Source: an uncultured Candidatus Saccharibacteria bacterium
Lineage (GTDB): Bacteria > Patescibacteriota > Minisyncoccia > Phycocordibacterales > UBA9973
NCBI GenBank assembly: GCA_964450735.1
Contig: CAYVDC010000003.1
Location: 40,342 to 104,341, forward strand
Direction of reading: 5' to 3'
Length of the DNA stretch: 64,000 bases
The notes under the pieces were generated by a model. That model worked only from the letters and a program-made list of their open reading frames with translations. It did no database searches and was not told where the DNA came from. Position 1 is the first letter of the stretch. Each line of letters begins with the position of its first letter. Positions 7,904 to 50,401 of the stretch are shown here, piece after piece. Both the position numbers and the translations under genes were made by a program.

Positions 7904-9571
7904 ATGGAATCTGTAACGAAACAGTGCCAGAATTGCTCGATTGATTTCGTTATTGAAAGTGAGGATTTTTTCTTTTATGAAAAAATAAAAGTTCCACCAC
8001 CGACATTCTGTCCCGATTGTCGTCAGATGCGCCGTTATGCATGGCGAAATGAGCGAACTTTGTATCGTCGCGATTGTGACCTGTGTAAGAAGAAGATCGT
8101 TTCTATCTACCGAGAGGATTCCCCATATACTGTCTATTGTCCATCCTGTTGGTGGAGCGATGGATGGGATTCTGAATCATATGGACAGGACTATGATCCT
8201 TCAAAATCTTTTTTTGAACAGATGAACGAATTGAGGATGAAAGTCCCAAGGGTAGGATTGATGTCAAAGAACTGCGTCAATTCAGACTATGTGAATCATT
8301 CTTCAAATTCAAAGAACTGTTATATGAGCTTTGTTGCTTGGGAGTCTGAAGATTTGCTGTATTCGTCAAGCATCCTCAATGGAAAAAATTGCGTTGATTG
8401 TTACCGCACAGAGGAAGGCTCAAATGAGCGTTTATATGAGTGCATGACTTGCTATCGCTGCTACAAATGCCAGTATTGTTATCAGGTGCATGATTCATCT
8501 GATTGCTACTATTCATTTGATCTCAAAGGATGCACTGATTGTTTTCTTTCATATAACCTCCGCGGCAAGTCGTACTGCTTCATGAACGAGCAGTTAACTC
8601 GTGAAGAGTATTTTGAGCGCCTGAAACAATACGATCTTGGTTCAAGCAAGGTCCGAGAAGAATTATACAAGCTTTGGGTTGAGATTATTCAGAAAAAAGC
8701 TCTGCACCGGTCTTCGGTCATTGAACAGGCGGTAGATTGTACTGGTAACCTTATTTACAATTCAAAGAATGTCAAGAATGGATTTGAAGCGAATAATTGT
8801 GAAGACATGAAGTACACGATCGTTTCGACAGATTCAAAGGATATTATGGATTGCTATCACTATGGCGGCGGTAGTTCTTCGTTGATGTATGAGAGCCATG
8901 CGATCAGCGGAGGCAACTCAGTCATTGTCTGTCATCTGTCGTACGACAATTCGTTCATTTCTTATTGTGATACCTGCCACAACTCGCAGAATCTCTTCGG
9001 CTGTATTTCTGTCCGCAAAGGCTCATACATGATTTTAAATAAAAAATATTCTGAAGCGGAGTTCAAAGAATTGGTTCCGAAAATAATCGAGCGCATGAAA
9101 GAGGCAGGGGAGTACGGCGAATTTTTCCCAGCCGCCCATTCTCCGTTTGGATACAATGAAACTCAGGGCAACGTACATATGCCGCTTTCTAAGGAACAAG
9201 CGATTACATATGGATTGAAGTGGCAGGATTCATTGCCGGGAACATTTCATAAAGGAACAATGACAGCCGATGAATTGCCGGACACTATCAGTGAAGTTTC
9301 TGATTCGATTCTTGCTGAAATTCTTACTTCAGTCAAAACAGGCAGAAATTATAATATTGTTCCACAAGAGCTACAATTTTACCGACAGAACAATATCCCA
9401 ATTCCACAACTGCATCCAGATGAACGATACGAACGCAGGCTTGCACTCAAACCGAGCCGAAAGCTATTCAAGCGAACAACGGAAGATGAAGTTGAAGTTT
9501 TGACAGCCTATGCACCAGGCCGGCCGGAACGGATCGTGAGTGAGGAATATTATAAGAAAAATGTGCTATAA
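7904..9571 (+). CDS. cysteine-rich zinc-ribbon paralog A (type I; C-terminal zinc knuckle degenerate)
   Basis: N-terminal CQNC..F.I..EDFFFYEKIKVPPPTFCPDCRQMRR. It shares CILNKKYS, GEFFP...SPFGYNET and the ...YAPGRPERIV...KNVL tail with the six other copies in the window. The C-terminal CP.CR cysteines are replaced (HPDER). Confidence 0.8.
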   Translation: MESVTKQCQNCSIDFVIESEDFFFYEKIKVPPPTFCPDCRQMRRYAWRNERTLYRRDCDLCKKKIVSIYREDSPYTVYCPSCWWSDGWDSESYGQDYDPSKSFFEQMNELRMKVPRVGLMSKNCVNSDYVNHSSNSKNCYMSFVAWESEDLLYSSSILNGKNCVDCYRTEEGSNERLYECMTCYRCYKCQYCYQVHDSSDCYYSFDLKGCTDCFLSYNLRGKSYCFMNEQLTREEYFERLKQYDLGSSKVREELYKLWVEIIQKKALHRSSVIEQAVDCTGNLIYNSKNVKNGFEANNCEDMKYTIVSTDSKDIMDCYHYGGGSSSLMYESHAISGGNSVIVCHLSYDNSFISYCDTCHNSQNLFGCISVRKGSYMILNKKYSEAEFKELVPKIIERMKEAGEYGEFFPAAHSPFGYNETQGNVHMPLSKEQAITYGLKWQDSLPGTFHKGTMTADELPDTISEVSDSILAEILTSVKTGRNYNIVPQELQFYRQNNIPIPQLHPDERYERRLALKPSRKLFKRTTEDEVEVLTAYAPGRPERIVSEEYYKKNVL

Positions 9572-9578
9572 CTGATTT

Positions 9579-11297
9579 ATGGAACAGCGAAACTGCGAAA
9601 ATTGCAAAATAGATTTTCAGATTACAGCCGAAGATATTTCTTTTTATTCCCAGATGAAAGTTCCTTTTCCGACCTGGTGTCGCGAATGCCGATTTATTCG
9701 CCGTCTCATGTGGCGCAACGAGCGCGCGTATTACAAGCGCCCCTGCGGGCTCTGTCAGAAGAATATTATTTCGCTGTATGCACCAGAAAATACGTTTCCT
9801 GTGTATTGTCACGAATGCTACAACAGCGACAATTGGGACCGATTCGAGCATGGGATGGAATACGATTTCTCTCAGCCGTTTTTCGCGCAGTACAAAGTAC
9901 TACTTTCAAAGGTACCTCGCGTTGCGATGTATCAATATGAATCAACAAAGAGCGAGTATGCTAACTTCATTGGTCATACCAACAACGCATACCTTTCGGT
10001 TTCAGTGGTAGATCATTCAGAGAATATCTACTATTCAAAAAATATTACTCATTCCACAAATCTCTATGATTGTCTGGACTCTTTGACCTGTGAAAATTGC
10101 TACGAGAACATTGGCTGCACCAGCAACTACGGCTGCGCTTTTGCGGTGAACTCAAAAAACTGCGTCAGCTCGCAGTATGTTTTTGACTGTCAAAATTGCT
10201 CAGACTGCTTCATGTCTTCTAACTTGCGCAATAAGCAATATTGCGTGCGAAATCAGCAGCTGACCAAAGAGGAATATGTTGAATTTCTAAAGACTGTATC
10301 TTCCGACGAGTCTTTGAAAAAGGAATTTGATGAACTTACTCGAAACTCTATTCATAGATACGCGAACAACATTAATGCTGTACATTCAAAAGGCGATAAT
10401 TTGAAAAATACCAAAGACTGCAACTATTGCTTTAGTATTTCAGATGGCGAAAATCTTACCTATTGCCACCGAACGCCAGGACTAAAAGACAGCATGGATG
10501 TGAACAACATGATGTGGTCTGCCCGAGGCTATGAGTATTCGAGCGGGGGAGCACAGGGAAGCAGCGATCTGCGGTTTTGTACTAACATGTTTAGAGGTAA
10601 TTTGGATAATGAGTATTCTGACCATTGCGGAACCACATCACATGCCTTCGGCTGCATTTCGGTCAAAAGTGCCGAATACTGTATTTTAAATAAACAGTAT
10701 TCTAAAGAACAATATGAGGAATTGGTTCCACAAATTCGCGAACATATGGACCAATCTAAATATGTTGATTCGAAAGGCCGAGCGTTTGGATACGGCGAGT
10801 TTTTTCCGCCAGAATTTTCCATGTTTGCATATAACGAAACAGCAGCTCAAGAATACTTTCCTAAATCAGAAAGTGAAGTAAGTGACTTTGGGGTCAATTG
10901 GAAAGATCGTGAAAAGACTGACTATGGAACATTGCTCACAGTAGAAGAGTTGAAGAAACTTGATCGTACCGATGCTGCTTCGGTAACAAGCAAAGCCGTT
11001 CAATGTAATGGCGATTCAACCACACTTTGCAGTGGCGCCTATCGTATCTTGCCGGAAGAATTGGAATTTTATAATCGATTCAACATACCGCTTCCAGAAG
11101 CATGTCCTAACTGTAGATATTTCAAGCGCTTGCAACGATTTTGCAATCCGCTGACACTTTGGAAAAAGTCATGTGCCTGTGATATGGAAAACCACGACCA
11201 TTCCGGTACATGCCCCAACGAATTCGAAACGACCTACGCGCCAGACCGGACAGAAAAAGTATACTGTGAATCGTGTTATCAAAAAGAAGTTCTCTAA
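9579..11297 (+). CDS. cysteine-rich zinc-ribbon paralog B (type I)
   Basis: Shows the same N-terminal and C-terminal CxxC...CxxCR modules and ends ETTYAPDRTEKVYCESCYQKEVL. It sits 7 nt downstream of paralog A. Confidence 0.8.
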   Translation: MEQRNCENCKIDFQITAEDISFYSQMKVPFPTWCRECRFIRRLMWRNERAYYKRPCGLCQKNIISLYAPENTFPVYCHECYNSDNWDRFEHGMEYDFSQPFFAQYKVLLSKVPRVAMYQYESTKSEYANFIGHTNNAYLSVSVVDHSENIYYSKNITHSTNLYDCLDSLTCENCYENIGCTSNYGCAFAVNSKNCVSSQYVFDCQNCSDCFMSSNLRNKQYCVRNQQLTKEEYVEFLKTVSSDESLKKEFDELTRNSIHRYANNINAVHSKGDNLKNTKDCNYCFSISDGENLTYCHRTPGLKDSMDVNNMMWSARGYEYSSGGAQGSSDLRFCTNMFRGNLDNEYSDHCGTTSHAFGCISVKSAEYCILNKQYSKEQYEELVPQIREHMDQSKYVDSKGRAFGYGEFFPPEFSMFAYNETAAQEYFPKSESEVSDFGVNWKDREKTDYGTLLTVEELKKLDRTDAASVTSKAVQCNGDSTTLCSGAYRILPEELEFYNRFNIPLPEACPNCRYFKRLQRFCNPLTLWKKSCACDMENHDHSGTCPNEFETTYAPDRTEKVYCESCYQKEVL

Positions 11298-11300
11298 AAT

Positions 11301-11327
11301 AAAAAAACTCCCATTGGGAGTTTTTTT
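11301..11327. terminator. bidirectional intrinsic terminator
   Basis: aaaaaaactcccattgggagttttttt is a palindromic hairpin with A/T runs on both sides. It lies between convergent paralog B and rpmA. Confidence 0.65.
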
Positions 11328-11328
11328 A

Positions 11329-11601
11329 TTAGATAACGTGTACTGCTTTCTTTACAGAAGTCGTACCGTCAAAGTTTCCTTTGCGCTTGTTGGTGAATTT
11401 CACAATTCCTGGCTTGAGTGCGAAGAGAGTGTGATCTTTTCCAATTGAGACGTTTTTACCTGCGAGGATTCGTGTTCCGCGCTGACGTACGAGAATCGAT
11501 CCTGCTTTTGCAGTTTCGCCAGCGTAGAGCTTGGTTCCAAGGTATTTTGGATTTGAATCCTTCAGGTTACTGGCGGTTCCGCCGGCTTTTCGATGTGCCA
11601 T
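11329..11601 (-). CDS. rpmA: 50S ribosomal protein L27
   Basis: [29 protein letters not shown]...[26 protein letters not shown] is L27. Confidence 0.9.
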
Positions 11602-11606
11602 AGAAT

Positions 11607-11852: not shown

Positions 11853-11887
11853 CGCACAATTGTGTCACAAAATGATATACTTCTAAC

Positions 11888-12799
11888 ATGATACGAGCAA
11901 TTGGTAACCTATTTCTTATCGTTTTTCTTTTTGCTGTAATTTATGCAGCACGTGGAGTAGTTGCTCCAGTGGTACAAAAAGTTGGCACGTATGTAAGCAC
12001 AGCAGTTGTGACATTCCAAAATGAGTATGGACTCAAGAAAGCTTTGCCAGAACTCGACAAACAACCAGAGAAAGAAATAGCCACTCCGGGACCGCTTGAA
12101 GTAAAAACACCTCCAACTACAACCGAAACTCCAGCATCAGGCATTACTAAAGCAAGCATTATCTATTGGACCAATCAGGCACGCAAGGAAAACGGCAATC
12201 TGCCTCCACTGACAGAAAATAAAGTATTAAATGGAACTGCAACAGCAAAAACAAACGACCTCTTTGCAAAAAGTTATTTTGAACACACTTCACCGAGCGG
12301 AGTAACGGTTGCAACTCAGGCTCAGGGTGCAGGGTATGAGTACATTATGATCGGAGAGAACCTCGCCCTCGGAAACTTCGCTTCAGGTGAAGCCATTGTA
12401 GATGCTTGGATGAATAGTCCTGGCCACCGAGCAAATATCCTGAACGATCGGTACACTGAGATCGGTATTGGCGTGAGCCAAGGAACGTATCAGGGCCGTA
12501 CAGTTTGGATCGCAACGCAGCATTTTGGATTGCCAAAGAACGCTTGTCCAATAGTTGAAGAAAGCCTCAAAAATACCATTGCAGCCAATCAGTCCAAAAT
12601 CGATCAACTCAAGGTTCAAATCGAAGCAAAAAAGCGGGAAGTCGACAGCACCAGTCAGCTTTCATCTGAATACAATAATCGAGTAAACGAATATAACGCC
12701 TTGGTTCGAGAATTCAATGATTTGGTTGGAACCACCAAAACGGAGATATCGACATACAACAATCAGGTCCAGGCGTACAATGCATGCGTTCAGGGATAA
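11888..12799 (+). CDS. CAP/SCP (YkwD-like) domain protein with N-terminal TM helix and C-terminal coiled coil
   Basis: The GYEYIMIGENLALG...AWMNSPGHRANIL...YTEIGIGV motifs match CAP domains. Confidence 0.7.
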   Translation: MIRAIGNLFLIVFLFAVIYAARGVVAPVVQKVGTYVSTAVVTFQNEYGLKKALPELDKQPEKEIATPGPLEVKTPPTTTETPASGITKASIIYWTNQARKENGNLPPLTENKVLNGTATAKTNDLFAKSYFEHTSPSGVTVATQAQGAGYEYIMIGENLALGNFASGEAIVDAWMNSPGHRANILNDRYTEIGIGVSQGTYQGRTVWIATQHFGLPKNACPIVEESLKNTIAANQSKIDQLKVQIEAKKREVDSTSQLSSEYNNRVNEYNALVREFNDLVGTTKTEISTYNNQVQAYNACVQG

Positions 12800-12844
12800 G
12801 TAACACGATACAAATACTCAGTTGTATCTATACTAGAAGATTGG

Positions 12845-12870
12845 AAACCAGCTTAATAGGCTGGTTTTTC
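12845..12870 (+). terminator. rho-independent terminator
   Basis: aaccagc-ttaatag-gctggtt followed by ttttc. Confidence 0.6.
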
Positions 12871-13206
12871 TATTGGGGAATTGAGTATAGTAATGTCGCA
12901 CAATATATCTTTTACGACACTATATACTGCAAAATACCTTTATAAATAAGGATTTCTGAATTTGGCTCGTTTTGCATTCTGAGGTTTTGAGTCCCTGCTG
13001 CCCTGTTTTGTATTGTTTTGTTTGTGCATGCTCTTCGACATACAGATAACGTTTCTATCCCTCACTCGACCATCAATATTTTTTTATTTTGCATCCCCTG
13101 TTTGATTACAAATAAGAACACATGTAGTAATAGTGTCAAGTATACGTACAGAGAAAATTAGGTACAGAAAAAGCCGTGGTTGTGCACGGCTTTGATCTGT
13201 CTGGCA

Positions 13207-13377
13207 TTATTTCATCCAGTAACGCACTCCTTTGTGCCACGAACAGGTTCCTTGACGGTGTTTGCTGTAGCTATATGTGCCGTCTTTGCAGACAGCGGTA
13301 GGCCGTGCGGCGTGAGCCAGCGGGCTTACCATCATAAAGCTTCCAAGTATCAAGGTTGAAATAAGTAGCTTTTTCAT
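13207..13377 (-). CDS. small secreted protein, DUF3761-like (56 aa; below the ORF-track length cut-off)
   Basis: Hand translation of the - strand gives MKKLLISTLILGSFMMVSPLAHAARPTAVCKDGTYSYSKHRQGTCSWHKGVRYWMK. It has a signal peptide plus a C.DG.YS.S.HRQGTCS.H.GV..W motif and a downstream hairpin terminator (13175-13200). Confidence 0.5.
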   Translation of the reverse strand: MKKLLISTLILGSFMMVSPLAHAARPTAVCKDGTYSYSKHRQGTCSWHKGVRYWMK

Positions 13378-13520
13378 ATAAATGATTATTATGGTTGTTC
13401 CTGATAATGGCTTTTGAACGTTCTCTTCAAGAAAAATGTAGCAAATAGTATTTAACAGATTTCTAAACTCGATTTTATATCTTTTTCAGGAAAATTTCAT
13501 CTGCATGGTACTATATCCAT

Positions 13521-15131: not shown

Positions 15132-15136
15132 AAAAC

Positions 15137-15902: not shown

Positions 15903-15947
15903 ATGTTTTGTTGAATACTTGTTATTGTTTTGACCTGTTACAAGTAT

Positions 15948-23217: not shown

Positions 23218-23221
23218 TCCC

Positions 23222-35269: not shown

Positions 35270-35393
35270 ATGTGTCATTATTATACGGTTCGACGAAAAT
35301 TCCGCAAGCGCGGAAAAAATGTAAAAAAAAGAGCACCAACTGAAACAGTCGGTGTCTTGTATTTTGAAATCTAGTGAAGGTAGTAAATAGTCG

Positions 35394-39440: not shown

Positions 39441-41126
39441 CTAGGCTACTTCGTTCTGATAGCAAGATTCGCAGTAGATGATCTGCTTTGATTCGGGAGA
39501 ATATGAAGTCTCGAATTCATTTGGACATCCCTCGTTCATGCAGTGACGGTGCCAGAGCTTGCGCGGTGTACGTCGGTTCAGTCGATCACGGAATCGGCAT
39601 GGGAAGCATTGCTCTGGAAGCGGCATGTTTAGTTTTCGGTGGAGCATAAGTTCGTCCTGGGTAATTCTAAAAGCAGTAGCGCATGCAGTATGCAGCTTTT
39701 TGCTTTCTTCAGAATCCTGGGAGCTGCAGCTGATCGTTTGCTGTAGAATTGTGTCGTCAGTTTCAGCGATTGATTGCGGAATGTTTGAGTGTTCCAAGGT
39801 GATGGTGTAATTGCGATTGTCGCGGTCATGCCACTTCCAGCCTTTGGCGAGAACCTCTTCTTTTGTCATTGGGAAATAAAATTGAGCAACCGTTTCGTTG
39901 TATGCAAACGGTGAAATAGATGTCGGCATGAATTCTCCCCATTCGCCTGTCTGCTTCATGTGCTCAACAATTTTCTTGGTAAGCGCCTCATAGTCTTCTT
40001 TTGTATATTGTTTGTTGAGAATGCAGTATTTGTTTTTGTTTAATGCTACACAGCCAAAAAGATAATCACAGCTGAAGCAATTTTCTACATAGCGTGAATC
40101 TGAAATATTCCAGGTACGTGAACAGCCAATACTTCGTGCTGAATAGCCAATGCCTTCCATTTCATAATCAAGCTCGTTGAAGGCCATCTCGGTGACATCC
40201 ATGCAGTTTTTGACATGCCACGCGTCTTGGCAGTAGCTTGAATCTTCCGCATCGAACATGCAAAAGTTCGCTTTGCAGTTCTTTACGTCATCAATGTAGG
40301 AGCCAGTCGACTGCACGATCTTTTGGCCTTGATAATACTTTTTTGGCAATCCAAGCGAAAGTTCACTTTGTATTCTTTGTGCTTCTGCGATGTTTGCTCG
40401 TGAGAACGTGAATTCTGAAAGTCTCTTTTTGTATTCTTCTTTGCTGAGCTGTTCATTGAACCAGCAATACGACTTGCTGCGGAGATTCACACATCCGAAA
40501 CAGCTGATGCATCCCTTGCAGTCTTTGAGAAAATAGCTCTCCGTGCAATCAGAACAGTCGTCGAGATAGGCTGATCGAGAACAATTAGTACAGTTGATGC
40601 ATTCATAGAGGAGTTCTGATGTGAGCAAACGATGGCTGTCGATACATTCTTTGCTGCTGAAATAGAGCGAGCCGTACATGGAGTCTTCGCTCTGATCGGA
40701 ACCAAATACCATGTAGCAATTCTTTAGATCCTGGGATTGGTTGGTGTAGTCGCTGTTTACGCATCGTGGATGAGCAATGCTGAGCTTTGGTGTTCGTTCG
40801 CGAAGTTCTTTGAATTGATCGAAGAACGGCCGATTGAAATCGAAATCTGCACCGTATTGCAAACGATCCCAATCATCACTCCACCAACAGCTGGTGCAGT
40901 AAACGGGGCCTTTATAGTCAGGGTTGTAAATTGAAACCATCGGCGTTTCGCACTTGGTGCAATTTCGGCGATAGAGCTCCCACTCATTGCGATCTGAGAT
41001 GCGTCGCTGGTAGCGACAGTCAGGACAAAGAGTTGGTGCAGGCACACCGATCTTTTCATAGAAACTTATGTCATCAGCAGTCGGGCTGAAGTTGGTTCTG
41101 CATTGGGCGCAGGTAATTGCATTCAT
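39441..41126 (-). CDS. cysteine-rich zinc-ribbon paralog C (type I); the start is the internal Met MNAITCAQCRTNF
   Basis: Carries the same N- and C-terminal zinc-ribbon modules, CILNKQY, GEFMP...SPFAYNET, and ends ETSYSPESKQIIYCESCYQNEVA. Confidence 0.8.
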   Translation of the reverse strand: MNAITCAQCRTNFSPTADDISFYEKIGVPAPTLCPDCRYQRRISDRNEWELYRRNCTKCETPMVSIYNPDYKGPVYCTSCWWSDDWDRLQYGADFDFNRPFFDQFKELRERTPKLSIAHPRCVNSDYTNQSQDLKNCYMVFGSDQSEDSMYGSLYFSSKECIDSHRLLTSELLYECINCTNCSRSAYLDDCSDCTESYFLKDCKGCISCFGCVNLRSKSYCWFNEQLSKEEYKKRLSEFTFSRANIAEAQRIQSELSLGLPKKYYQGQKIVQSTGSYIDDVKNCKANFCMFDAEDSSYCQDAWHVKNCMDVTEMAFNELDYEMEGIGYSARSIGCSRTWNISDSRYVENCFSCDYLFGCVALNKNKYCILNKQYTKEDYEALTKKIVEHMKQTGEWGEFMPTSISPFAYNETVAQFYFPMTKEEVLAKGWKWHDRDNRNYTITLEHSNIPQSIAETDDTILQQTISCSSQDSEESKKLHTACATAFRITQDELMLHRKLNMPLPEQCFPCRFRDRLNRRTPRKLWHRHCMNEGCPNEFETSYSPESKQIIYCESCYQNEVA

Positions 41127-41182
41127 GGAGTAAGTATAGCGCGCTTCGCGGGTCTGTAAACTATCTAAGTCATATATACTAA

Positions 41183-41205
41183 AAAGTGTCATTTTTTGAC
41201 ACTTT
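41183..41205. promoter_or_regulatory. palindromic operator-like site AAAGTGTCA-ttttt-TGACACTTT in a divergent promoter region
   Basis: 9-bp perfect arms centred in the 95-nt gap between paralog C (-) and the wHTH-like gene (+). Confidence 0.4.
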
Positions 41206-41221
41206 ATGATATGGTTCAAAA

Positions 41222-42052
41222 ATGCTGTTTTCGAGAAATACGGGAGCGACAATTGAAGAATTGATTATCGAATCGCTTGGCGCACATGCTGTGACAGGCG
41301 CTACTCTTTTGGAGAAAATCAGGAAAACGCTTCCGAAAACGCCGAAAGAGACTTTTTACCGGATCCTCCGTTCCCTGCTTGAGCAGGAAGTTGTGACCAA
41401 GTATGGCATGCTCTATGGAGTGAATCGCCATTGGCTCAAACGCCTTTACCGTTTTAGTAAACCAAAACTCGATCTGACACAGCCAACAAACACTATGAGT
41501 GTACTATCTTTCGAGGAAGGAGATTCCATCACGTACACATTTAAAACACCCAACCTAATGGGAATTTACTGGGCACATCTGTATGATGCGGTGTTTGACC
41601 TTCACTATCCCCAAATACCGATTCTTATATTCCACCCACATGAATGGCTGATTCACACTCGCACTGACTCAGAAACTTTTTTCCTCAAACGTTTTTCCGA
41701 AGATCAGAAACGAGGTCTGTTTTCTATTGGCGGCTCAACTGAACTAGATACAGAATTTAAAAAGAAATGGGCAAACAAGTATCTCGAGGTTGCGACGGGT
41801 GCGTCATATGGATTAAAAAATACTGAGTACTTGAATGTTTTAGGCGACTTTATTTTCAAAGTTAAAGTGAGTGCGCGATTCGCAAAAGATATTGATGGGT
41901 TCTTCAGAAAATATAAAACAATCAATGACGACAACCGAGAAGAATTGATGTCCATCTGCAATCGTCCCGACAAAGTTAAAATGATCTTTACGAGATCGAA
42001 GAAAGAAGCGGATAAATGGCGAGCGAAGTGGAAGAAAGACTTCTTTATATAA
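41222..42052 (+). CDS. hypothetical protein with an N-terminal winged-helix-like region (possible transcription regulator)
   Basis: TGATLLEKIRKTLPKTPKETFYRILRSLLEQEVVTKYG resembles a wHTH. It is divergent from paralog C and convergent with paralog D, overlapping it by 8 nt. Confidence 0.4.
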   Translation: MLFSRNTGATIEELIIESLGAHAVTGATLLEKIRKTLPKTPKETFYRILRSLLEQEVVTKYGMLYGVNRHWLKRLYRFSKPKLDLTQPTNTMSVLSFEEGDSITYTFKTPNLMGIYWAHLYDAVFDLHYPQIPILIFHPHEWLIHTRTDSETFFLKRFSEDQKRGLFSIGGSTELDTEFKKKWANKYLEVATGASYGLKNTEYLNVLGDFIFKVKVSARFAKDIDGFFRKYKTINDDNREELMSICNRPDKVKMIFTRSKKEADKWRAKWKKDFFI

Positions 42053-43796
42053 CCTCTTTTTGGTAGCAGGATTCGCAATACACTTTTTCTGGTCGTTCTG
42101 TCGAATACGTTGTTTCAAATTCAACCGGACACTTTCCTGCATGGTCATGACTCGCCTCTTCGCACATACATGAACGCTGGTAGAGTTCCGGGCTATTTCG
42201 CCAATGAACTCGCTCCACATGTCGGCAGTTGAAGCACAATCGCGGCAGTGGCACATTCATTTGTCGGTAAAACTGCACTTCCTCTGGTGTAAGTCGAAAT
42301 GCTGTCATGCAGTTGGCTCCGCAGTCCTTGTTGTGGCTATTTTCTTCATGATGCATGCATTCAATCACTTCCTGAGTGATTTCGTCAGGCACATCGGCAA
42401 TGCTGTTAGGGAGATTTTTGGATGTTTTAGTAACCGTGTAATTTCTGGTGTCAGGAGTTCGCCAGTTAAATCCGAGTTCAAGTACTTCTTCTTTTGGAAT
42501 TGGAAAATACTCATATCCCTGTGATTCGTTGTAGCCATAGGCGCTAAACATCGGTGGGAAAAATTCTCCGTATTTGTAGACGCGCCCTTTTTCATCGGTG
42601 TACGGCATGTCGATCATGTGCTGAATGATTTTTGGTACCAATGCCTCGTATGCTTCCTTGGTGTATTGTTTATTCAAAATGCAGTACTGTTTGCTATGAA
42701 GTGCGATGCAGCCGAAGGTGTTGGATACCGTTCTGCAGTTGATGATGTATCTCGAATCCGCAGCTGTTAAGGAATCAACTGCAAAAAATGTTCTGTTCAT
42801 TCCGGAACCTGAACCGCTGATTTCATAGGCGAGCTCAATCCCCACTCCTGATGAAGTGAGATCCATTGAGTCCTTGATTGGATCATAAATAATACTCTGC
42901 GAGTGTGCGCAGTTTTGAGCGCCGTTGGAGAAGAAGCAGTTTCGAAGTTCAGATGCGTTGTAGAGATAGTCTCCAGTGCAGCCAAAGTCTTTCAGTCCAT
43001 GTCGAAAACGAACTGGCTGGCTTGTCCAAAAAGCTTCCGCACCTCCTCGAGCTTTTTGCAATCCTTTCCAAGTGTCTAACTTGAACTCTTGGATTTTCTT
43101 TGAGTATTCTTCTTTGGTATATGGCTGATTAAAAATATGATAGCTTTTGTTGCGCAAGTTGGTGCAGCCAAAACAGTCAGTACAACCAACGCAATCTTGG
43201 CTGAACCACACATCAGCACAGGCATTTAAATTGCGAGAAAAAGCTACTTTGTTGCAGTTGGTGCAGTTGATGGCCCAGTAGGTAAATTCACAGAGTTTGC
43301 AGTTGATTGTATCGAAACAGTTTTTGCTTTTCTGCAGGCTTACTCCGTAAGCGCTGTCTTCGGCATATCCAGCATCGAAGCAGAGATAGCAGTTTTTCAG
43401 ATCAATTCCGAGGCTGTATTCGCTGTTGACCTGATTTTGGTTAAGCGTATTGCTTGCTGGAACAACATCAAACAATTCCTTGAACTGCAGAAAAAACGGT
43501 TTTGAAAAGTCATAGTCCTTGCCATAGTCGAGCGGATCCCAGGCATCGCTTCCCCAATATTCCCGATCATACGCCGGCATCAGTGCGCTCGGAGGAACCA
43601 TGGAGAATATCTTCTTGCCAGTCGCCGCGCAGGTACGGCTATACAAATACCTAAAATTACGAAACGCCATGCGACGCATCGCACGGCATCTCCAGCACCA
43701 CGTCGGAGGAGGAACATTTATTTTCTGGTAGAACGAAGAATCATCGGGGGTGATGGTGAAGAAGGTTTTGCAGTTTTGGCAGGAAATGTTTTGCAT
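42045..43796 (-). CDS. cysteine-rich zinc-ribbon paralog D (type II; second N-terminal zinc knuckle lost)
   Basis: N-terminal CQNCKTFF...FYQKINVPPPTWCWRCRAMRR, then AATGKKIFS in place of C..C.K, then YDREYWGSDAWDP. The C-terminal ribbon is intact and the protein ends VYCESCYQKEVI. Confidence 0.8.
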   Translation of the reverse strand: MQNISCQNCKTFFTITPDDSSFYQKINVPPPTWCWRCRAMRRMAFRNFRYLYSRTCAATGKKIFSMVPPSALMPAYDREYWGSDAWDPLDYGKDYDFSKPFFLQFKELFDVVPASNTLNQNQVNSEYSLGIDLKNCYLCFDAGYAEDSAYGVSLQKSKNCFDTINCKLCEFTYWAINCTNCNKVAFSRNLNACADVWFSQDCVGCTDCFGCTNLRNKSYHIFNQPYTKEEYSKKIQEFKLDTWKGLQKARGGAEAFWTSQPVRFRHGLKDFGCTGDYLYNASELRNCFFSNGAQNCAHSQSIIYDPIKDSMDLTSSGVGIELAYEISGSGSGMNRTFFAVDSLTAADSRYIINCRTVSNTFGCIALHSKQYCILNKQYTKEAYEALVPKIIQHMIDMPYTDEKGRVYKYGEFFPPMFSAYGYNESQGYEYFPIPKEEVLELGFNWRTPDTRNYTVTKTSKNLPNSIADVPDEITQEVIECMHHEENSHNKDCGANCMTAFRLTPEEVQFYRQMNVPLPRLCFNCRHVERVHWRNSPELYQRSCMCEEASHDHAGKCPVEFETTYSTERPEKVYCESCYQKEVI

Positions 43797-43799
43797 AGA

Positions 43800-45236
43800 T
43801 TATTTTAGTAAGAAATCTATTTCACCCTTAAAAAGATTACTAAAATCTTGAGGCTTCTCTATTTTATCTGCGATTTTATCTGCGATTTCTCCCTTTAAAT
43901 CACCAATGGATTCACCAGACTTTTTTCTAGTTTGAAATTCAGTAAAAAGTAAGTTATTGAAGTCCTCATAATAATCTTCTAGTGCCTGTTTTTTTAGTTC
44001 GTGGAATCTGCTTTCTCCTAATGTAGTAAGTTTTGTATATTTTTGATTACTTTTTTCACTTGTAGCTACTTGGTCAATAATTATATGGTATGAGTCTCGA
44101 TACAAAGGATGACAAGTAAATAAAGTATTATAAATAGATAAATTTTCAATCCTCTCTTTAAATTTTTCTGTCCTAGTTACTCCCGAGCATGATATAAAAT
44201 TAAAGTCTTGTAAAAATCCCTTTTCCTTGCATTTATTTAAAATTCTACAAATACTACTTTCTTCAACTAAGCAGAGATTGTCTGTAAGCCCGATATCGCT
44301 TGGATCTGCCCCTAGCAGCATTGCAACTTCCTTCATTTTAAAACCACCGTTAAAACCATTACTATCGATATTTTTCCCATTTTCAATTCTGAAAACTTTT
44401 TGGGTTGGAAAATTTTTAGAAGAGTTTATTATAAACGGACTATGTGTCGCAATAAAAAACATTACTTTGTCATTCAGACTATTTTCAGTTATAAATGAAT
44501 CAATTAAGCCAGGTAATATTTTTTGAGCTTCAGGATGTAAGTTATTTTCAGGTTCTTCAATTAGCACAATTACCAGCTCCGGCTTTACTTCTTGAGCAGA
44601 CTTTAAGATTTGTTCAAAAATTCCGTTTAATCGCTCTAGTCGTTTAATTCCCTGAGCTAAATACTTAGGTTTTATTTTATTTCCATTTTGAAAAAAAGAT
44701 CTTGAAGGTGTTTCTTCGAAAGGGTCAACAGGGGTTTCAATTTTTACTTCAATTGGTTCAAGATTTAAATATATGGCTGATTGTTTAATTCTATTAAACA
44801 ATCTTGCCTCAACTCCACTTCCGGTGTTACGACTTGCCCCAATTCCTCTTCCAAAATTACGGGTTGCCTCTAGAGAATCAAAATTTACACTTTCAGCTTT
44901 TTTAATACTACCTAACGCTGTAGGAAAATCTTCAAAATCAGTATCAGCAACAAAATCTAATAACATGGTTCCAGTTATATTTATATTATTACCGTCAGAA
45001 ATAACTTTTTTAATCGTATTATGCTTTTCAAATACAATTTCTGACTCTTTTCCCCACATGAATGTGTTTAGTGCAGGTATTTTATTAATTCTTATTGATA
45101 ATAAAGCTAGTGCGTTTAGAACGCTAGTTTTTCCACTACCATTTTTCCCAACTAAATAGTTAACAAACTCAAGTGATTTGAATTCATTAACTCCTTGTAG
45201 GTTTTTTATGTTTTTAATTTTAAGATTGATAGCCAT
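43800..45236 (-). CDS. OLD/AAA15-type ABC ATPase, possibly with a degenerate C-terminal Toprim-like region
   Basis: Walker A LVGKNGSGKTSVLNAL, Walker B/D-loop VIVLIEEPENNLHP and H-loop ATHSP. The C-terminal LCLVEESS...ISCSGVT...HIIIDQ weakly resembles Toprim. It lies 3 nt from the flanking paralogs on each side. Confidence 0.7.
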   Translation of the reverse strand: MAINLKIKNIKNLQGVNEFKSLEFVNYLVGKNGSGKTSVLNALALLSIRINKIPALNTFMWGKESEIVFEKHNTIKKVISDGNNINITGTMLLDFVADTDFEDFPTALGSIKKAESVNFDSLEATRNFGRGIGASRNTGSGVEARLFNRIKQSAIYLNLEPIEVKIETPVDPFEETPSRSFFQNGNKIKPKYLAQGIKRLERLNGIFEQILKSAQEVKPELVIVLIEEPENNLHPEAQKILPGLIDSFITENSLNDKVMFFIATHSPFIINSSKNFPTQKVFRIENGKNIDSNGFNGGFKMKEVAMLLGADPSDIGLTDNLCLVEESSICRILNKCKEKGFLQDFNFISCSGVTRTEKFKERIENLSIYNTLFTCHPLYRDSYHIIIDQVATSEKSNQKYTKLTTLGESRFHELKKQALEDYYEDFNNLLFTEFQTRKKSGESIGDLKGEIADKIADKIEKPQDFSNLFKGEIDFLLK

Positions 45237-45239
45237 ATT

Positions 45240-46934
45240 TTATATTACTTCTCTCTGATAACACTCCTCACAATAAACCACCTCCTCCCTCCCCGCCTCA
45301 AACGATGACTTTACCTCTTTTCCGCACTTATCACATGTCCGATCATACAACCGAAATCCATTCAGCATTCTAATTCTCCCCATATGCCGGCAGTCAGGAC
45401 ATTCTCTTGGAACTGGAATTCCAAATCGCTTCAAGAGCTGCAGTTCGCCAACCACAATGCGATAAAATTTTCCACAATTGCATTTCAAGATTTCATCGGT
45501 AAAAGCATCTGGAATATCGTTGATGCTATCCGGAATATCCGCCAACTCAATTGTCTGCGTATAGTTCGGCACCGTCGGCTCGATCCATTTGAAACCACTT
45601 TCAAGAATTTCTTCTTTGTCCATCGGGAAATATTGTTCAGCAAATGATTCGTTGTACGCAAACGGTGAAATGTCATACGGCATAAAGTCGCCGTATTTCC
45701 AGACGCGACCTTTGGAGTCCACATACGGATTGGCGTTCATATCCGCAATAATTTTTTCACGAAGGGCAAAATAGTCTTCTTTGGTGTATTGCTTGTTGAG
45801 GATGCAGTATTCTTTCTTGCGCAAATTCACGCAGCCGAAACAGTTTGTTGAACCCAAGGTAAAGATTGAATACTCTACATCGCGGATATTACCCCAGCTC
45901 ATAGCGCTGTATTTGACCTCATACGCCCCTTCGCCCGTATTGGTGACATCTATGCAGCGTTCGACGTTATTACCCCAGTCAGTGATGTCGTACGAGTCTT
46001 TGACGGTTGGCAGCGTAATCATCTGCACATAGGCGCTGTCTTCCGCTCCAGCCTGGTAGCATTGTTTGGCGTTTTTGGCATGAAAGACGTATTCGCCGGT
46101 TGAGTTATGGTTCATGCGAGCATGCACATATCGAATCGGAAACTTCTTCCAGAATTTGTAAATCTCTTCGCGGATTTTTACATGACTTGAATGTTTATCA
46201 AGTTCCATCTCAGCGATCTTTTTGTCGTATTCTTCTTTGGAATATTGTTCGTTGAAAATACAATGGCTCTTGTTTCGCAAATTCACGCAACCAAAACAGT
46301 CAGTACAGCCAATGCATTCCTTGGAGTACCACATGCCGACAGAGCTTGAGCAGTTATTTGAAAAGTAACATCGAGAACTGCCAGAGCCGCCGATCGTTCC
46401 GTAGTTGAGCTCGACATGCATTCCCATGAGCAGATCGGCAGAATCTTTGACATAGGCAAGCGTTGAGCCGTAGTAGGTATTCTCGCAAAAGTCTGCGGTA
46501 AATATCAGATGCGAGTCTTTGATGCTGCCAGCGTGATTGATGTAGTCGCTATTTACCACAGTCGCGTAGTCGGTCACTTTTTGCATCCAAATAGTTTTGG
46601 ATTGCAGTTCGTAGAGCTGATCAAAGAAATTTCTATTCGGATCATAGTCGAGATATGTATCGCTCGGATCCCAATTGTCGCTCCACCAACAGGCGCTGCA
46701 GTAGACTCGCAATCCCCGTTCTGGTGAGAATATTGAAATTATTTTTTTGTTGCACAGTTCGCATTCGCGGCGGTAAAAGGTGCGTTCGTTGCGGAACATC
46801 AGGCGACGTTGAAAACGGCATTCAACGCAAAAGGTCGGTGCCGGTACATTCAAGGAATGGTAAAAATTGAAATCGTCGGAGTCGATAGTGAAGGAGGTTT
46901 TGCAGTTTTGGCAGGTCCGGGTTTCCATATACAT
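45240..46934 (-). CDS. cysteine-rich zinc-ribbon paralog E (type I)
   Basis: N-terminus METRTCQNCKTSFTIDSDDFNFYHSLNVPAPTFCVECRFQRR, and ends with a C-terminal ribbon ...VYCEECYQREVI. Confidence 0.8.
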   Translation of the reverse strand: MYMETRTCQNCKTSFTIDSDDFNFYHSLNVPAPTFCVECRFQRRLMFRNERTFYRRECELCNKKIISIFSPERGLRVYCSACWWSDNWDPSDTYLDYDPNRNFFDQLYELQSKTIWMQKVTDYATVVNSDYINHAGSIKDSHLIFTADFCENTYYGSTLAYVKDSADLLMGMHVELNYGTIGGSGSSRCYFSNNCSSSVGMWYSKECIGCTDCFGCVNLRNKSHCIFNEQYSKEEYDKKIAEMELDKHSSHVKIREEIYKFWKKFPIRYVHARMNHNSTGEYVFHAKNAKQCYQAGAEDSAYVQMITLPTVKDSYDITDWGNNVERCIDVTNTGEGAYEVKYSAMSWGNIRDVEYSIFTLGSTNCFGCVNLRKKEYCILNKQYTKEDYFALREKIIADMNANPYVDSKGRVWKYGDFMPYDISPFAYNESFAEQYFPMDKEEILESGFKWIEPTVPNYTQTIELADIPDSINDIPDAFTDEILKCNCGKFYRIVVGELQLLKRFGIPVPRECPDCRHMGRIRMLNGFRLYDRTCDKCGKEVKSSFEAGREEVVYCEECYQREVI

Positions 46935-46937
46935 ACT

Positions 46938-48677
46938 CTACAGGACTTCCTTCTGATAGCAAGTTTCGCAATACACCTTTTCTGGCCGCTCAGGCGCATA
47001 AGCAGTTTCAAATTCCACCGGACATTTCTGTTTGTGGTCGTGATTTGTCTCAGTACACATACATGAACGGTGCCATAGTTTCCATGGCAGGATTCGCTCA
47101 AGGCGTTTAAAATATCTGCAGTTTGGGCAAAGCCGAGGCAGGGCTAAGTTAAATTTCTGCAACAGTTGTAATTCTTCCTTGGTAACTCGGAAAGCCCCTG
47201 AACAAATATGATTACACTCTTCTGAGTGCTCACACGGCAATGATTCTTGAGTTATAGATTCGGGAATATCTTTGACGTGTTTCGGAAGCGAATCAAACCC
47301 AACTGTACCCTGGTGCCCGCGCTTCGGCTGATCTATCCAGGTATATCCTTGTTTGAGTGCCTCTTCTTTGCTTAGTGGAAAAAGCTCAAAGAGGTTTGTC
47401 TGATTGTATGGAAATCGGGATAGTTCGATTGGAAAATATTCACCATAAAAGTAAGTCCTGCCTTTAGTGTCAATATATGGCACTTTTTTCATCTGCTCAA
47501 TTATCTTGTTGCGGAGTTCATAGTACTCAGCTTCAGAATATTGCTTATTTAGAATGCAGAATTTTTTATGCTTAAGGCCAGTACAGCCGAACAAGTTCTT
47601 AACATGATTGGTGCCGTCGCAATAGGTAATTTCCCGTACGTCGCCGACATCAAAGCAAAAAAGTGCATGGTCGACTCCTCTTCCAGCAACAGAAAATTCG
47701 TATGACAACTCTGCTCTTCCTGACATTGAAAAGTCACAAGAATCTACTACCGGTGATACGGTGATCTGTGCGTAGCGAATATTTTCTGAGTCGTTGATAG
47801 CAAAGGAATGGAATACATTTTTTGAGTTAAAAATAGTGTCCCCTGTAACATTTTCGGATTGCAGGATTGTCGCATATCGATGAATTGCATTGGTATACAT
47901 ATCAGCATATTCTGTTTTCAGTTTTGAGAGCGAATCAAAGCCGCCATCAAGCTCTTCTGTAATCTTTTGCTTGTATTCTTCCTGTGTAAGTTGCTGATTG
48001 CGAAATACATATGATTTATTTCGTAAATTCGACGACATGAAGCAATTGGTACAATTCACGCAATCAAAAAGGAAATGCGATTCCACGCACGCTTGTGATC
48101 GGGTTAGAAAAGAGGAGCCATAGTTTTCGTGCGACGCAACTAATTCATAGCAATTTTCATTGCCGCTAAAATTCGCCGAGTCCATGCACATCCGGTTGCC
48201 GTTCTCGCTTCCCCATGAATAGTACACGTGTTCACTTTTGGTTACTCCATAGGATAGATAAATATTGCTTGATTTGTATACATAATTTGAGAAAACAATA
48301 TTCTCTCCGTTGTTGTTAGTATGCGCCAAATGCAATTGCGGTACGCGCTTCATGAGATCGTGAAATTGTTCAAAAAACGGCTTAGAGAAATCATAGTCCG
48401 CGCTGTATTCACTGGCGTCCCAATCATCTTTGAAATAGCAATCGGTACAGTACACCGTAAATGGTGAATCTGGGGCATACGATGAAGCCATATCTGTGCC
48501 GCATTTTGAACAGGAACGCTTAAAGAGCGAACGCTGGTTTCTGGAAGCCGTGCGGCGTTCCATTCTGCAGTCGGGGCAAAATGTAGGAGGTGGAACGTTT
48601 ACTTTTGCGTAAAAAGCAAAATCTTCAGGAAAAATAGTGAAGTCGGTTTTGCAGTTTTGGCAGGTTCGGGGTTCCAT
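46938..48677 (-). CDS. cysteine-rich zinc-ribbon paralog F (type I); start at the internal MEPRTCQNCKTDF
   Basis: Same architecture, ending ETAYAPERPEKVYCETCYQKEVL. It sits 5 nt after the paralog G stop. Confidence 0.8.
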   Translation of the reverse strand: MEPRTCQNCKTDFTIFPEDFAFYAKVNVPPPTFCPDCRMERRTASRNQRSLFKRSCSKCGTDMASSYAPDSPFTVYCTDCYFKDDWDASEYSADYDFSKPFFEQFHDLMKRVPQLHLAHTNNNGENIVFSNYVYKSSNIYLSYGVTKSEHVYYSWGSENGNRMCMDSANFSGNENCYELVASHENYGSSFLTRSQACVESHFLFDCVNCTNCFMSSNLRNKSYVFRNQQLTQEEYKQKITEELDGGFDSLSKLKTEYADMYTNAIHRYATILQSENVTGDTIFNSKNVFHSFAINDSENIRYAQITVSPVVDSCDFSMSGRAELSYEFSVAGRGVDHALFCFDVGDVREITYCDGTNHVKNLFGCTGLKHKKFCILNKQYSEAEYYELRNKIIEQMKKVPYIDTKGRTYFYGEYFPIELSRFPYNQTNLFELFPLSKEEALKQGYTWIDQPKRGHQGTVGFDSLPKHVKDIPESITQESLPCEHSEECNHICSGAFRVTKEELQLLQKFNLALPRLCPNCRYFKRLERILPWKLWHRSCMCTETNHDHKQKCPVEFETAYAPERPEKVYCETCYQKEVL

Positions 48678-48682
48678 ATCAA

Positions 48683-50401
48683 TTAGAGGATTTCTTTTTG
48701 GTAACACTGTTCACAATATACTTTTTCAGGACGGTTTGGCGAGTAGGTAGTTTCAAAGGTATTTGAGCAGGCTCCAGAATGGCTGTGGCCGGAAATATCA
48801 CACGAGCAGGTTCGAGTATGCAGCTTCGGCACATTTCGAAGCGCCAATCGCTCATAATGACGACAGTTAGGGCAAAGGTTTGGCAGCGGAATATTCATTC
48901 GTTTGCAGAAATCAAATTCAGTCTCAATCATGCGGAATGCGCCCGTACATTCATGTGTGCAGGATTCTTTGTGAGCACATTCAATAACCTGATCAAGAAT
49001 AGTTTTGTCAGCATCTTGGATATTGTCGGCAAGATTTTCTGCTGGAATTGTAATCGTGTATTGCTGTTTCGCAATCGGATACCAAACTAATCCTTTCTCA
49101 GTCGCCTCAGTTTCAGTTAGCGGAAAGAATTCATGCGCCTGAGTCGCATAATATGGAAATGGGGACATACTTGATGGGAAAAACTCGCCATATTCCCCTG
49201 TTGTTTCCATATGTTCGATAATTTTTGGAACTAATGCCTCATATTCTTCCTTTGAATATTGCTTGTTTAAAATGCAATATTTTTTATTGCGGAGTGACAC
49301 GCAGCCAAAAAGATATGAAGCATTGCTGCAGTGAACTGAATACTCCATAAATGAAGCATTTGGATATCCCTCTGCGCAGAATTTCACATTCGAAACGCCA
49401 GTACCCATAACCATGGATTCGTAGACGAGCTCTGCGTTGTCTCCGTAGTTGCTGTAATCGTAACAGTCTTTGACCGGGCCAGTCAGAATATTTTGGATGT
49501 ATTTGCTGTCTTCGGTTCCACGAACACGATAGCAATCTTTTGCATTCTTGGATTCGTAAATATAGTCGCCGGAAACATTTACATTCTGGCCGCCATGCAT
49601 GAACTTGTGCGGAAATGTTTTCCAATGCTTGTACGCTTCTTCTCGTGCAGTATCAAACGATTTCCGTGAACCAAGATTCATTTCAGCTATTTTCGCAAAG
49701 TATTCTTCTTTTGAATACGGCTGATTAAAAATATGATACGACTTGCTTCTCAAACCAATTGAGCCGAAGCAATCATTGCATCCGACGCAGTCTTTAGAAA
49801 GTGTCATTTCGTGACACTTTTCACAATCTACTGAAAAGAAGGTCCTGTAGCATTCGATCGTATTTATATTGCCATAGCTGAGCTCGCAGCGATTGGTCAT
49901 GTGGCTGTCGAAACACTGTTTCGAGCCTTGATCCCAGATAACATAGGCAGAATCCTCGGTAAATGACGCTCCACGAACAAGGTAGCAATTCTTGATATCG
50001 TTTGCATTAGTACAATACTGAGAATTGACCGCGTTCATAATCGGATGCGCTGGCAGTGGAACAGAATGAAATAATTCCTGCCACTGCTCAAAAAACGGTC
50101 GGTTGAAATCAAAATCACGGCCATGATCCATTGGATCCCAGGCATCAGACATCCAATATTCTTTGTCGTAAATTTTTACCGGGCTTTCTTCAGGATACAA
50201 AGAAAAAATCTTCTCGCCAGTTCGCTCATCGGTTTTCTTGAAAAGATGCCAGTCGTTACGCCATGAGAGACGACGTTTAAGACGGCATTCAGGACAAAGC
50301 GTTGGCGGAGGAACTTGGATTTTGGAATAGAAATCAAAGTCCTCTGCGAGAATATCAAAAGTAGTATTGCAGTTCGCACATGCGACTGAAGCGGTTTCCA
50401 T
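48683..50401 (-). CDS. cysteine-rich zinc-ribbon paralog G (type II)
   Basis: N-terminal CANCNTTF...FYSKIQVPPPTLCPECRLKRR, then ERTGEKIFS with no second knuckle, then YDKEYWMSDAWDP. The C-terminal ribbon is intact. Confidence 0.8.
   Translation of the reverse strand: METASVACANCNTTFDILAEDFDFYSKIQVPPPTLCPECRLKRRLSWRNDWHLFKKTDERTGEKIFSLYPEESPVKIYDKEYWMSDAWDPMDHGRDFDFNRPFFEQWQELFHSVPLPAHPIMNAVNSQYCTNANDIKNCYLVRGASFTEDSAYVIWDQGSKQCFDSHMTNRCELSYGNINTIECYRTFFSVDCEKCHEMTLSKDCVGCNDCFGSIGLRSKSYHIFNQPYSKEEYFAKIAEMNLGSRKSFDTAREEAYKHWKTFPHKFMHGGQNVNVSGDYIYESKNAKDCYRVRGTEDSKYIQNILTGPVKDCYDYSNYGDNAELVYESMVMGTGVSNVKFCAEGYPNASFMEYSVHCSNASYLFGCVSLRNKKYCILNKQYSKEEYEALVPKIIEHMETTGEYGEFFPSSMSPFPYYATQAHEFFPLTETEATEKGLVWYPIAKQQYTITIPAENLADNIQDADKTILDQVIECAHKESCTHECTGAFRMIETEFDFCKRMNIPLPNLCPNCRHYERLALRNVPKLHTRTCSCDISGHSHSGACSNTFETTYSPNRPEKVYCEQCYQKEIL

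Follow-up and report, generated by a model that had tools for sequence, protein, structure and literature searches.

Patescibacteria have very small genomes, yet in the locus considered here 12 kb is given over to seven copies of one unnamed protein. The locus lies on contig CAYVDC010000003.1 (assembly GCA_964450735.1) of an uncultured bacterium labeled Candidatus Saccharibacteria, and the whole stretch analyzed, 64 kb in length, is referred to below as the window. The seven copies, here called paralogs A to G, contain recurrent cysteine pairs, some of which are missing from A, D, and G. An initial annotation of this locus read the mix of retention and loss as functional specialization rather than simple redundancy. 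Are the losses real, how far do they extend beyond this genome, and what do they say about the family? We consider it likely that these proteins carry structural Cys4 sites of which the inner two are replaceable, and that the mix seen in the window represents inherited, stable divergence of ancient, non-redundant paralogs.

Four cysteine sites in seven paralogs

Positions 7904-50401 of the window contain seven complete open reading frames (ORFs) of a single family, which encode proteins of 555-583 amino acids that can be aligned end to end at pairwise identities of 34-46%. Together they account for 11,979 nt, or 19% of the window. A full protein has 16 ligand cysteines that make up four Cys4 sites. 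In the numbering of paralog F (46938-48677, minus strand; 579 aa from a Met at 48677), which is used as the reference and was the first to be modeled, the N-terminal sites comprise C6/C9/C34/C37 (site 1) and C56/C59/C77/C80 (site 2), and the C-terminal sites comprise C482/C492/C517/C520 (site 3) and C539/C552/C570/C573 (site 4). We write the state of a protein as four symbols for sites 1 to 4, with + for an intact site and o for a lost one. All 16 cysteines are kept (++++) in F and in paralogs B (9579-11297, plus strand; 572 aa), C (39441-41126, minus strand; 561 aa, the true start being the Met at 41126 and not a TTG at 41252), and E (45240-46934, minus strand; 564 aa), the last of which has compact knuckles (CNC at site 3 and CDKC at site 4). 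Site 2 has a spacing of exactly CxxC-x17-CxxC in A, B, C, E, and F, and a CxxC-x24-CxxC pattern with a hairpin-plus-helix layout is present in all seven paralogs.

The remaining three proteins depart from this pattern at defined sites. Paralogs D (42045-43796, minus strand; 583 aa) and G (48683-50401, minus strand; 572 aa), designated type II by the initial annotation, lack site 2 and keep both C-terminal sites (+o++). In D the degenerate site (43557-43631, minus strand; CAATGKKIFSMVPPSALMPAYDREY) has C-T-D-Y in place of C-C-C-C (CAATGKKIFS...AYDREYWGSDAWDP), and in G (50156-50230, minus strand; DERTGEKIFSLYPEESPVKIYDKEY) it has D-T-D-Y (DERTGEKIFS...IYDKEYWMSDAWDP). The second N-terminal site is thus lost in both proteins, as had been claimed, but D retains its first cysteine and G none. 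Paralog A (7904-9571, plus strand; 555 aa; state ++oo) has no ligand cysteine in its C-terminal region (9329-9550, plus strand): site 3 reads S-T-H-E (SVKTGRNYNIV...QLHPDE, nt 9329-9424, with the motif ...LHPDER...) and site 4 is without ligands (TTEDEVEVLTAYAPGRPERIVSEEY, nt 9476-9550; ...IVSEEYYKKNVL). The ORFs and the alignment thus bear out the cysteine losses described for D, G, and A, and every motif quoted in the initial annotation was found as written. What had been described as one C-terminal ribbon is, however, a double module with two Cys4 sites that is homologous to the N-terminal one, and A has therefore lost two sites and all eight C-terminal ligand cysteines.

Could these cysteines be missing as a result of frameshift, misassembly, or misalignment? 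Nothing pointed to such an error. All of the ORFs are intact, and the conserved residues on either side of every lost site align in frame and without insertions or deletions. The A protein is 100% identical in two independent sources (an NCBI contig and a Logan assembly of SRR12404947), and identical replacements are found in orthologues from other genomes, including, for the D pattern, a 97%-identical orthologue and about 100 other clusters. Because of these three lines of evidence, we treat an artefact as effectively excluded.

A distinct architecture surrounds the sites. The N-terminal 85 and C-terminal 90 residues are homologous (31% identity, E 4e-15), as are two halves of the central region (23% identity, E 2e-7). 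The N-terminal double zinc module combines a zf_Tbcl-type treble-clef finger with a zf_Tbcl_2-type CxxC-x17-CxxC finger. The two central halves are beta-solenoids in which cysteines and serines line up as an internal ladder; each is capped by the motif 'FGC..L..K.YCI.N.QY.KEEY' plus a helix. A conserved alpha/beta linker then leads into a C-terminal double zinc module that duplicates the N-terminal one. Matches to known domains are confined to the ends. The zf_Tbcl model (PF13451; gathering threshold 24 bits) matches the N-terminus of C at 24.3 bits, falls below threshold in A (18.7), F (18.9), and G (16.1), and gives no match in B, D, and E. The zf_Tbcl_2 model (PF23477; threshold 27 bits) matches residues 529-561 of E at 31.3 bits and is below threshold in F (18.3) and B (15.5), and TIGR04272 (NCBIfam cut-off 36 bits) reaches just 24.1 bits, below its cut-off, at the C-terminus of E. 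For the roughly 400 central residues nothing was found in Pfam, NCBIfam, PADLOC, or a PDB profile search. No ribosomal Pfam or NCBIfam model matched any of the seven, and neither the hexapeptide-repeat nor the bactofilin Pfam model gave a match. Three longer homologues (P0232, P0059, and P0116) were scanned for fused domains and contained only extra zf_Tbcl copies.

AlphaFold2 (AF2) models are consistent with this architecture. The model of F has a predicted local distance difference test score (pLDDT) of 83.6 and a predicted template modeling score of 0.84, and the model of A has a pLDDT of 88.2; in the first solenoid half, however, pLDDT is just 63-76. Each site is modeled as a knuckle made by a beta-hairpin, after which comes a CxxC where a helix begins. 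The C-terminal module of A, devoid of ligand cysteines, is modeled with the same order of strands and helices as in F (pLDDT 89-95), so that Cys-less modules are predicted to keep the fold, with the qualification that AF2 leaves metals out and draws on Cys-bearing homologues. From the 94-100% occurrence of cysteine at sites 1 and 4, the domain matches, and the all-or-none pattern of loss described below, we infer that the four Cys4 sites are structural zinc sites.

The central cysteines behave differently. They recur with a spacing of three residues along consecutive short repeats and interchange with Ser, Val, or Ile across the family, and they fit an inward-facing ladder better than they fit extra metal sites. 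For this reason an Fe-S assignment of the central CxxCxxC was rejected as the leading reading. None of the seven proteins has a hydrophobic segment (maximum Kyte-Doolittle score over 19 residues ≤0.85), and their isoelectric points are 5.4-6.0; they are therefore soluble and presumably cytoplasmic. A main role in nucleic-acid binding was down-weighted on account of this acidity.

The knuckles themselves also vary. The first knuckle of site 4 is expanded to CxC-x5-HxH-x3-C in B (11172-11276), D (42066-42170), F (46959-47063), and G (48704-48808), and 182 of 566 family members have this expansion. The site-3 knuckle carries a Cys/His-rich insert in D (42225-42359), F (47118-47234), and G (48863-48979). 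Paralog C has Cx4C at site 4, E is minimal at both positions, and A has neither site. The expanded Cys/His-rich knuckles may form a fifth metal site, one that the initial annotation did not list.

Site loss and constraint across the family

We asked how widely the family and its pattern of site loss are distributed. Homologue searches with F, D, and A as queries each returned between 3,701 and 7,566 clusters at 90% identity. Wherever a source name identified an organism it was a member of the Patescibacteria, and the proteins were named 'hypothetical' or given generic zinc-ribbon labels. We also searched 1.84 billion 50%-identity representatives exhaustively with a profile and obtained at least 2,287 clusters at E≤1e-30. 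When one genome per species was scanned, a relative was encoded at no fewer than 556 loci, in Paceibacteria-type lineages and in Gracilibacteria, Peregrinibacteria, Peribacteria, and Abawacabacteria. Tandem arrays are the rule, with up to eleven full-length copies in 22 kb at one locus (L004), seven at another (L064), and six at each of three more (L050, L056, and L066). The family is unannotated and was seen in this analysis only in Patescibacteria. No description of it was found in the literature, either under the Pfam and TIGR accessions or as a zinc-finger paralog family of the candidate phyla radiation, and a survey by Meheust et al. 2019 (PMC6744442) contains neither the word 'zinc' nor 'cysteine' and mentions no such family. 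A family of this size, with so restricted a range and such conservation, is likely to have a central function specific to its lineage. Many of the loci that carry it (L001, L008, L012, and others) are labeled 'uncultured Candidatus Saccharibacteria' in third-party annotation assemblies and have Paceibacteria-like synteny. A phage or mobile-element origin was considered and rejected; 2.9 million viral contigs yielded one marginal match.

Two independent samples give a consistent picture of site loss. The first, 206 full-length members taken from 79 loci, has 83 proteins in state ++++, 42 in +o++, 40 in +oo+, and 14 in ++o+; the rest are scattered over other states and include one protein with no intact site. 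Among 148 representatives at 50% identity the corresponding counts are 55, 43, 19, and 6, and loss affects 12 proteins at site 1, 78 at site 2, 35 at site 3, and 5 at site 4. Site 2 is thus lost in about 50% of proteins and site 3 in 25-35%, and losses of sites 1 and 4 are rare (3-8%). Occupancy of site 2 is all-or-none: of 562 members, 321 have four cysteines and 240 have zero or one, with two cysteines in a single member and three in none. Because of this all-or-none occupancy, the loss pattern goes beyond chance. The replacements are also alike, in that at sites 2 and 3 the first cysteine is usually kept and is followed by Thr/Ser, Asp/Glu/His, and Tyr/Glu. On a midpoint-rooted neighbor-joining (NJ) tree of 566 sequences, site 2 changed state at least 20 times, site 3 at least 18 times, site 1 at least 6 times, and site 4 at least 4 times, these being minimum counts on an approximate tree. 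The pattern is family-wide and not peculiar to this genome. As judged from these sequences, sites 1 and 4 appear indispensable and sites 2 and 3 dispensable, and the two inner sites have been replaced repeatedly by one polar set while module conservation and the predicted fold persisted.

The positions of the window paralogs in the tree indicate when their losses arose. D and G belong to a single clade in which site 2 is absent from 130 of 131 sequences. Even with all sixteen ligand columns removed, 82 of 100 NJ bootstraps place the two together and separate from the other paralogs of the window. About 100 orthologue clusters of D show C-T-(D/S/E)-Y. The two proteins thus descend from a single, ancient loss of site 2. 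Of the 135 members of the clade that contains both B and F, 132 are ++++. A belongs to a clade of 145 sequences that are mostly ++++, within which a nested group of about 40 lacks sites 3 and 4; 31 members of the nested group have additionally lost site 2 and 3 have lost site 1, and A's own state, ++oo, is rare. A is a member of a sub-clade of a separate orthogroup that lost sites 3 and 4. The losses are in each case inherited and found clade-wide in other genomes. Of the two subfamilies proposed in the initial annotation, type II is a true clade, but type I is better described as the ancestral state spread over at least four old lineages (A; B and F; C; E).

Have the paralogs that lost sites remained under constraint? 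Each paralog tested has its own orthologues elsewhere in the Patescibacteria at 50-97% identity, compared with 34-46% among the window paralogs. Within the A orthogroup, mean column identity of the C-terminal module is 0.71 in Cys-less and 0.69 in Cys-bearing proteins, and the Cys-less module has a fixed consensus of its own (...GRNYNI...IPIPRLHPDERY...RKLY...). Comparison with a related genome (L081, GCA_964532495.1) gives ratios of nonsynonymous to synonymous divergence (dN/dS) of 0.12 for D and 0.05 for both E and C; at the amino acid level C is 84% identical to its L081 orthologue. One might still suppose that A, D, and G are degenerating duplicates on their way to becoming pseudogenes, and it is true that the arrays gain and lose copies and that L081 has an eighth, N-terminally truncated copy in its D-C interval. 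However, A, D, and G are full-length ORFs, their replacements are fixed across whole clades, and the confident models place Cys-less modules in the same fold. Because of the module conservation, the modeled fold, and the low dN/dS, decay of redundant copies seems very improbable. The argument of the initial annotation against redundancy therefore holds to the extent that the paralogs are ancient and constrained and that each has orthologues of its own; the different partners or metal sites that it gave as examples would be a further step, and the analysis identified neither a partner nor a ligand or activity.

The site pattern offers a handle on the family, since a Cys4 site has been swapped for a fixed polar set without loss of constraint, and the four-, three-, and two-site proteins make up a natural series for biochemical comparison.

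Array exchange, neighboring genes, and alternative explanations

The seven genes are arranged in three groups. A and B lie downstream of rplI with 7-nt spacers, A starting 7 nt past rplI. G, F, E, a non-family gene X, and D form a single co-directional run with spacers of 3-5 nt, a spacing that argues for co-transcription; scans for promoters and terminators gave only background-level results. C is placed beyond D, past a divergently oriented ORF of 276 codons (41222-42052, plus strand). The product of this ORF has a winged-helix-like N-terminus and no Pfam match, and the ORF is taken as a real gene because it is 78% identical to a 228-aa gene in the same place in L081. Genes for winged helix-turn-helix (wHTH) proteins of the TrmB, PaaX, and ArsR types likewise adjoin arrays in other genomes.

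Alignment of positions 39441-50401 with L081 (3836-16210) reveals a mosaic. Nucleotide identity is 70-81% in the flanking housekeeping genes; among the array genes it reaches 96.5% in D (dS 0.14) and 87% in E, and C, at 76%, is at the background level. The L081 genes in the G and F slots are non-orthologous, with 34-43% amino acid identity to every window paralog, and zinc states nonetheless agree slot by slot between the two arrays despite this lack of orthology. The slot between E and D is occupied in the window by X (43800-45236, minus strand), which encodes a 478-aa AAA_15/AAA_21 ATPase resembling PtuA, AriA, and GajA and has a GC content of 36% against about 43% in its surroundings and 3-nt spacers. 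The same slot in L081 (9037-9995) contains two small, unrelated ORFs with 28% GC. This slot looks like a variable cargo slot or an integration hotspot within the array. X is the only one of these genes with a PADLOC match (AriA/PtuA/GajA-type), the seven paralogs having none, and no partner nuclease gene for it is evident in the window. The eighth L081 member (11923-13479; 518 aa) occupies the interval from D to the wHTH gene, lacks site 1, reads HPDER at site 3 as A does, has an intact site 4, and is without a counterpart in the window. Given the mosaic identity, the non-orthologous slots, the variable insert, and the extra copy, the arrays exchange and replace members, and the sequences suggest that D and E were recently exchanged and that the G and F slots were replaced.

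Gene context in other genomes points to a possible partner. Many Paceibacteria have the order L17-L13-S9-grpE, two to six family genes, a PaaX-like gene, dnaK, a VirD4-like ATPase gene, and a further family gene. Across the 79 loci, genes for soluble VirD4/TrwB/HerA-like ATPases represent 34 of 920 non-family genes and are present at 23 loci. Adjacency of such a gene to a family gene was observed 20 times against 10.3 expected (permutation p 0.0004), a count in which many of the linked loci are related and share one synteny block; the linkage holds in Gracilibacteria-type loci too. One ATPase subtype has a C-terminal zf_Tbcl_2 CxxC-x17-CxxC finger (E 1e-10), beyond which extends a long low-complexity tail. 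At two of four further loci a VirD4-like gene lies within 6 kb. A 2025 survey counted 5,713 VirD4 homologues in 2,918 Patescibacteria genomes, of which just 148 were near virB4, and noted that exaptation of these homologues cannot be ruled out (PMC12102498).

Individual loci add detail to this context. Loci with the ATPase linkage fall within L010-L078 (for example L011, L012, L013, L023, L033, and L046, as well as L032, L047, and L064). At L001, L008, L011-L014, L017, L020, L023, L033, and L046 the family genes split the usual grpE-dnaK pair and the PaaX-like gene is on the minus strand, and grpE adjoins family genes in 12 of 13 loci. Elsewhere, family genes interrupt the spc operon, where adk and map flank them (L083), or follow ruvX (L085).

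Two further explanations of the variation in zinc sites have to be set against inherited, stable divergence of non-redundant paralogs. If the proteins were exchangeable cassettes that act as substrates or adaptors of VirD4-like coupling ATPases, for instance as cargo carried by the type IV secretion system of Patescibacteria or by a translocase in the cytoplasm, the variation in zinc sites would be a by-product of target diversification. The enriched adjacency, the zf_Tbcl_2 finger shared with one ATPase subtype, the position of most Patescibacteria VirD4 homologues away from virB4, and the mosaic arrays, in which D far exceeds background identity and the G and F slots are non-orthologous, all speak in its favor. 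Yet the 64-kb window lacks a VirD4-like gene, two of the four further loci have none within 10 kb, the linked loci are often related genomes that share a synteny block and are not independent, the orthogroups keep about 50% identity from class to class, a degree of conservation not typical of effectors, which evolve fast, and the family has no known secretion signal. We accordingly rate this account as rather unlikely. In its fullest form it would describe a Patescibacteria-specific system in which solenoid adaptors or cargo dock to an orphan VirD4-like hexameric translocase through their terminal zinc modules and are exchanged as cassettes, with the number of intact sites setting the docking mode, and here our confidence is similarly low. 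If correct, it would provide a first function for the orphan type IV coupling protein homologues and for a family that is among the largest without annotation in these reduced genomes.

A second explanation invokes zinc sparing, with the Cys-poor A, D, and G serving as 'C-minus' back-ups under zinc scarcity in the manner of the C+/C- paralogs of L31, L33, L36, S14, and S4. Recurrent disruption of zinc ribbons among paralogs that keep the fold is the same form of phenomenon, and the ArsR-type and other wHTH regulators adjoining arrays in some genomes would be in keeping with it. This explanation is difficult to reconcile with the position of D (+o++), which is 3-5 nt from its neighbors and co-directional with E and F (both ++++), making separate regulation unlikely. 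Moreover, paralogs that are 34-46% identical and have their own conserved orthologues are not interchangeable isoforms, and every paralog in this genome sheds at most part of its zinc demand. Zinc sparing therefore seems improbable as an account of A, D, and G.

Inherited divergence of non-redundant paralogs with replaceable inner sites thus remains the reading we prefer, and several points weigh against it. The NJ tree is approximate and midpoint-rooted, the sample is biased to the A, D, and F orthogroups, and the orthologues of B, C, E, and G are known only indirectly. Zinc at the Cys4 sites is assigned from sequence, and the metal-blindness of AF2 bears on the predicted fold of Cys-less modules. 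The functional part is weakly supported: the acidic isoelectric points count against general nucleic-acid binding, no catalytic motif was recognized, and the lack of a VirD4-like gene in the window and near two of the four further loci counts here as well. With low confidence, we suggest that the terminal modules may be docking surfaces on a solenoid scaffold, so that site loss would alter docking and not folding, and that docking might occur in cooperation with the orphan VirD4-like ATPases that adjoin arrays elsewhere.

The other genes in the window are of the housekeeping type and offer no hint of the family's function; among them are rplI, genes for an S41 protease and for Nramp and CorA transporters, and aminoacyl-tRNA synthetase, mur/ftsW, ATP synthase, and dnaB genes. 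Three features are recorded here in their own right. An S-adenosylmethionine (SAM) riboswitch (Rfam RF00162, 47 bits; 633-730, plus strand) lies directly 5' of metK (793-1851, plus strand). A 274-aa protein (2868-3692, plus strand) is an unusual fusion of an ATP-cone, an Mrr-type restriction endonuclease, and an AF1548-like C-terminal domain. Finally, a 297-aa DnaJ homologue (34385-35278, minus strand) matches the J domain and the C-terminal domain but not the cysteine-rich zinc-finger domain.

Precedents and related folds

The closest precedent for the pattern of site loss is provided by ribosomal proteins, in which C+/C- paralogs are documented (PMC3087516, PMC7363858). As in L31, L33, L36, S14, S18, and S4, the four cysteines of a zinc ribbon are lost in an all-or-none manner among paralogs, the losses are recurrent, fold and function are kept in the ribosomal case, and duplication and horizontal transfer are involved, as in the family described here. 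The differences are nevertheless substantial. Paralogs A to G are non-ribosomal, multi-domain proteins of about 570 aa with four independently lost sites, and their Cys-poor and Cys-rich copies are co-oriented and near-contiguous, with no apparent separate Zur regulation. Makarova, Ponomarev and Koonin reportedly wrote in 2001 of a 'recurrent disruption of Zn-ribbons' in ribosomal protein paralogs.

Resemblances to other known folds are local. The terminal modules fall within or close to zf_Tbcl and zf_Tbcl_2 (with TIGR04272), models of no known function that span about 40 residues each, and membership beyond these small finger domains cannot be claimed. The center resembles narrow beta-solenoids (spruce budworm antifreeze protein 1m8n, curli CsgA 8c50, left-handed beta-helix acyltransferases, and bactofilin) at the level of the fold only, with low scores and zero sequence similarity. 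Unlike Cys-laddered solenoids, the family is presumably cytoplasmic, so that its ladder cysteines are probably not disulfide-bonded. LIM domains and the cysteine-rich domain of DnaJ share with the family the placement of two adjacent structural zinc sites in one compact module, which in those domains is used for docking. The profile contact with LIM (1ctl, E 0.28) is weak and not significant, however, and spacing and motifs differ, CxxCxGxG being absent. A link to chaperones is suggested by the arrays between grpE and dnaK in many Paceibacteria, but it consists of synteny only and is absent from the window.

Effectors that bear an XVIPCD are examples of substrates or adaptors of VirD4-type coupling proteins. 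Like the substrates of these coupling proteins, the family is multi-copy, has genes that in some genomes lie beside those of VirD4-like ATPases, and has conserved terminal modules. Unlike them, it shows no sequence relation, the ATPases concerned are mostly encoded far from virB4 (PMC12102498), and the association is statistical and partial. The family thus represents a known kind of evolutionary pattern that is new in an undescribed and surprisingly large family, and it would carry more weight if the ATPase link and the cassette-like exchange prove real.

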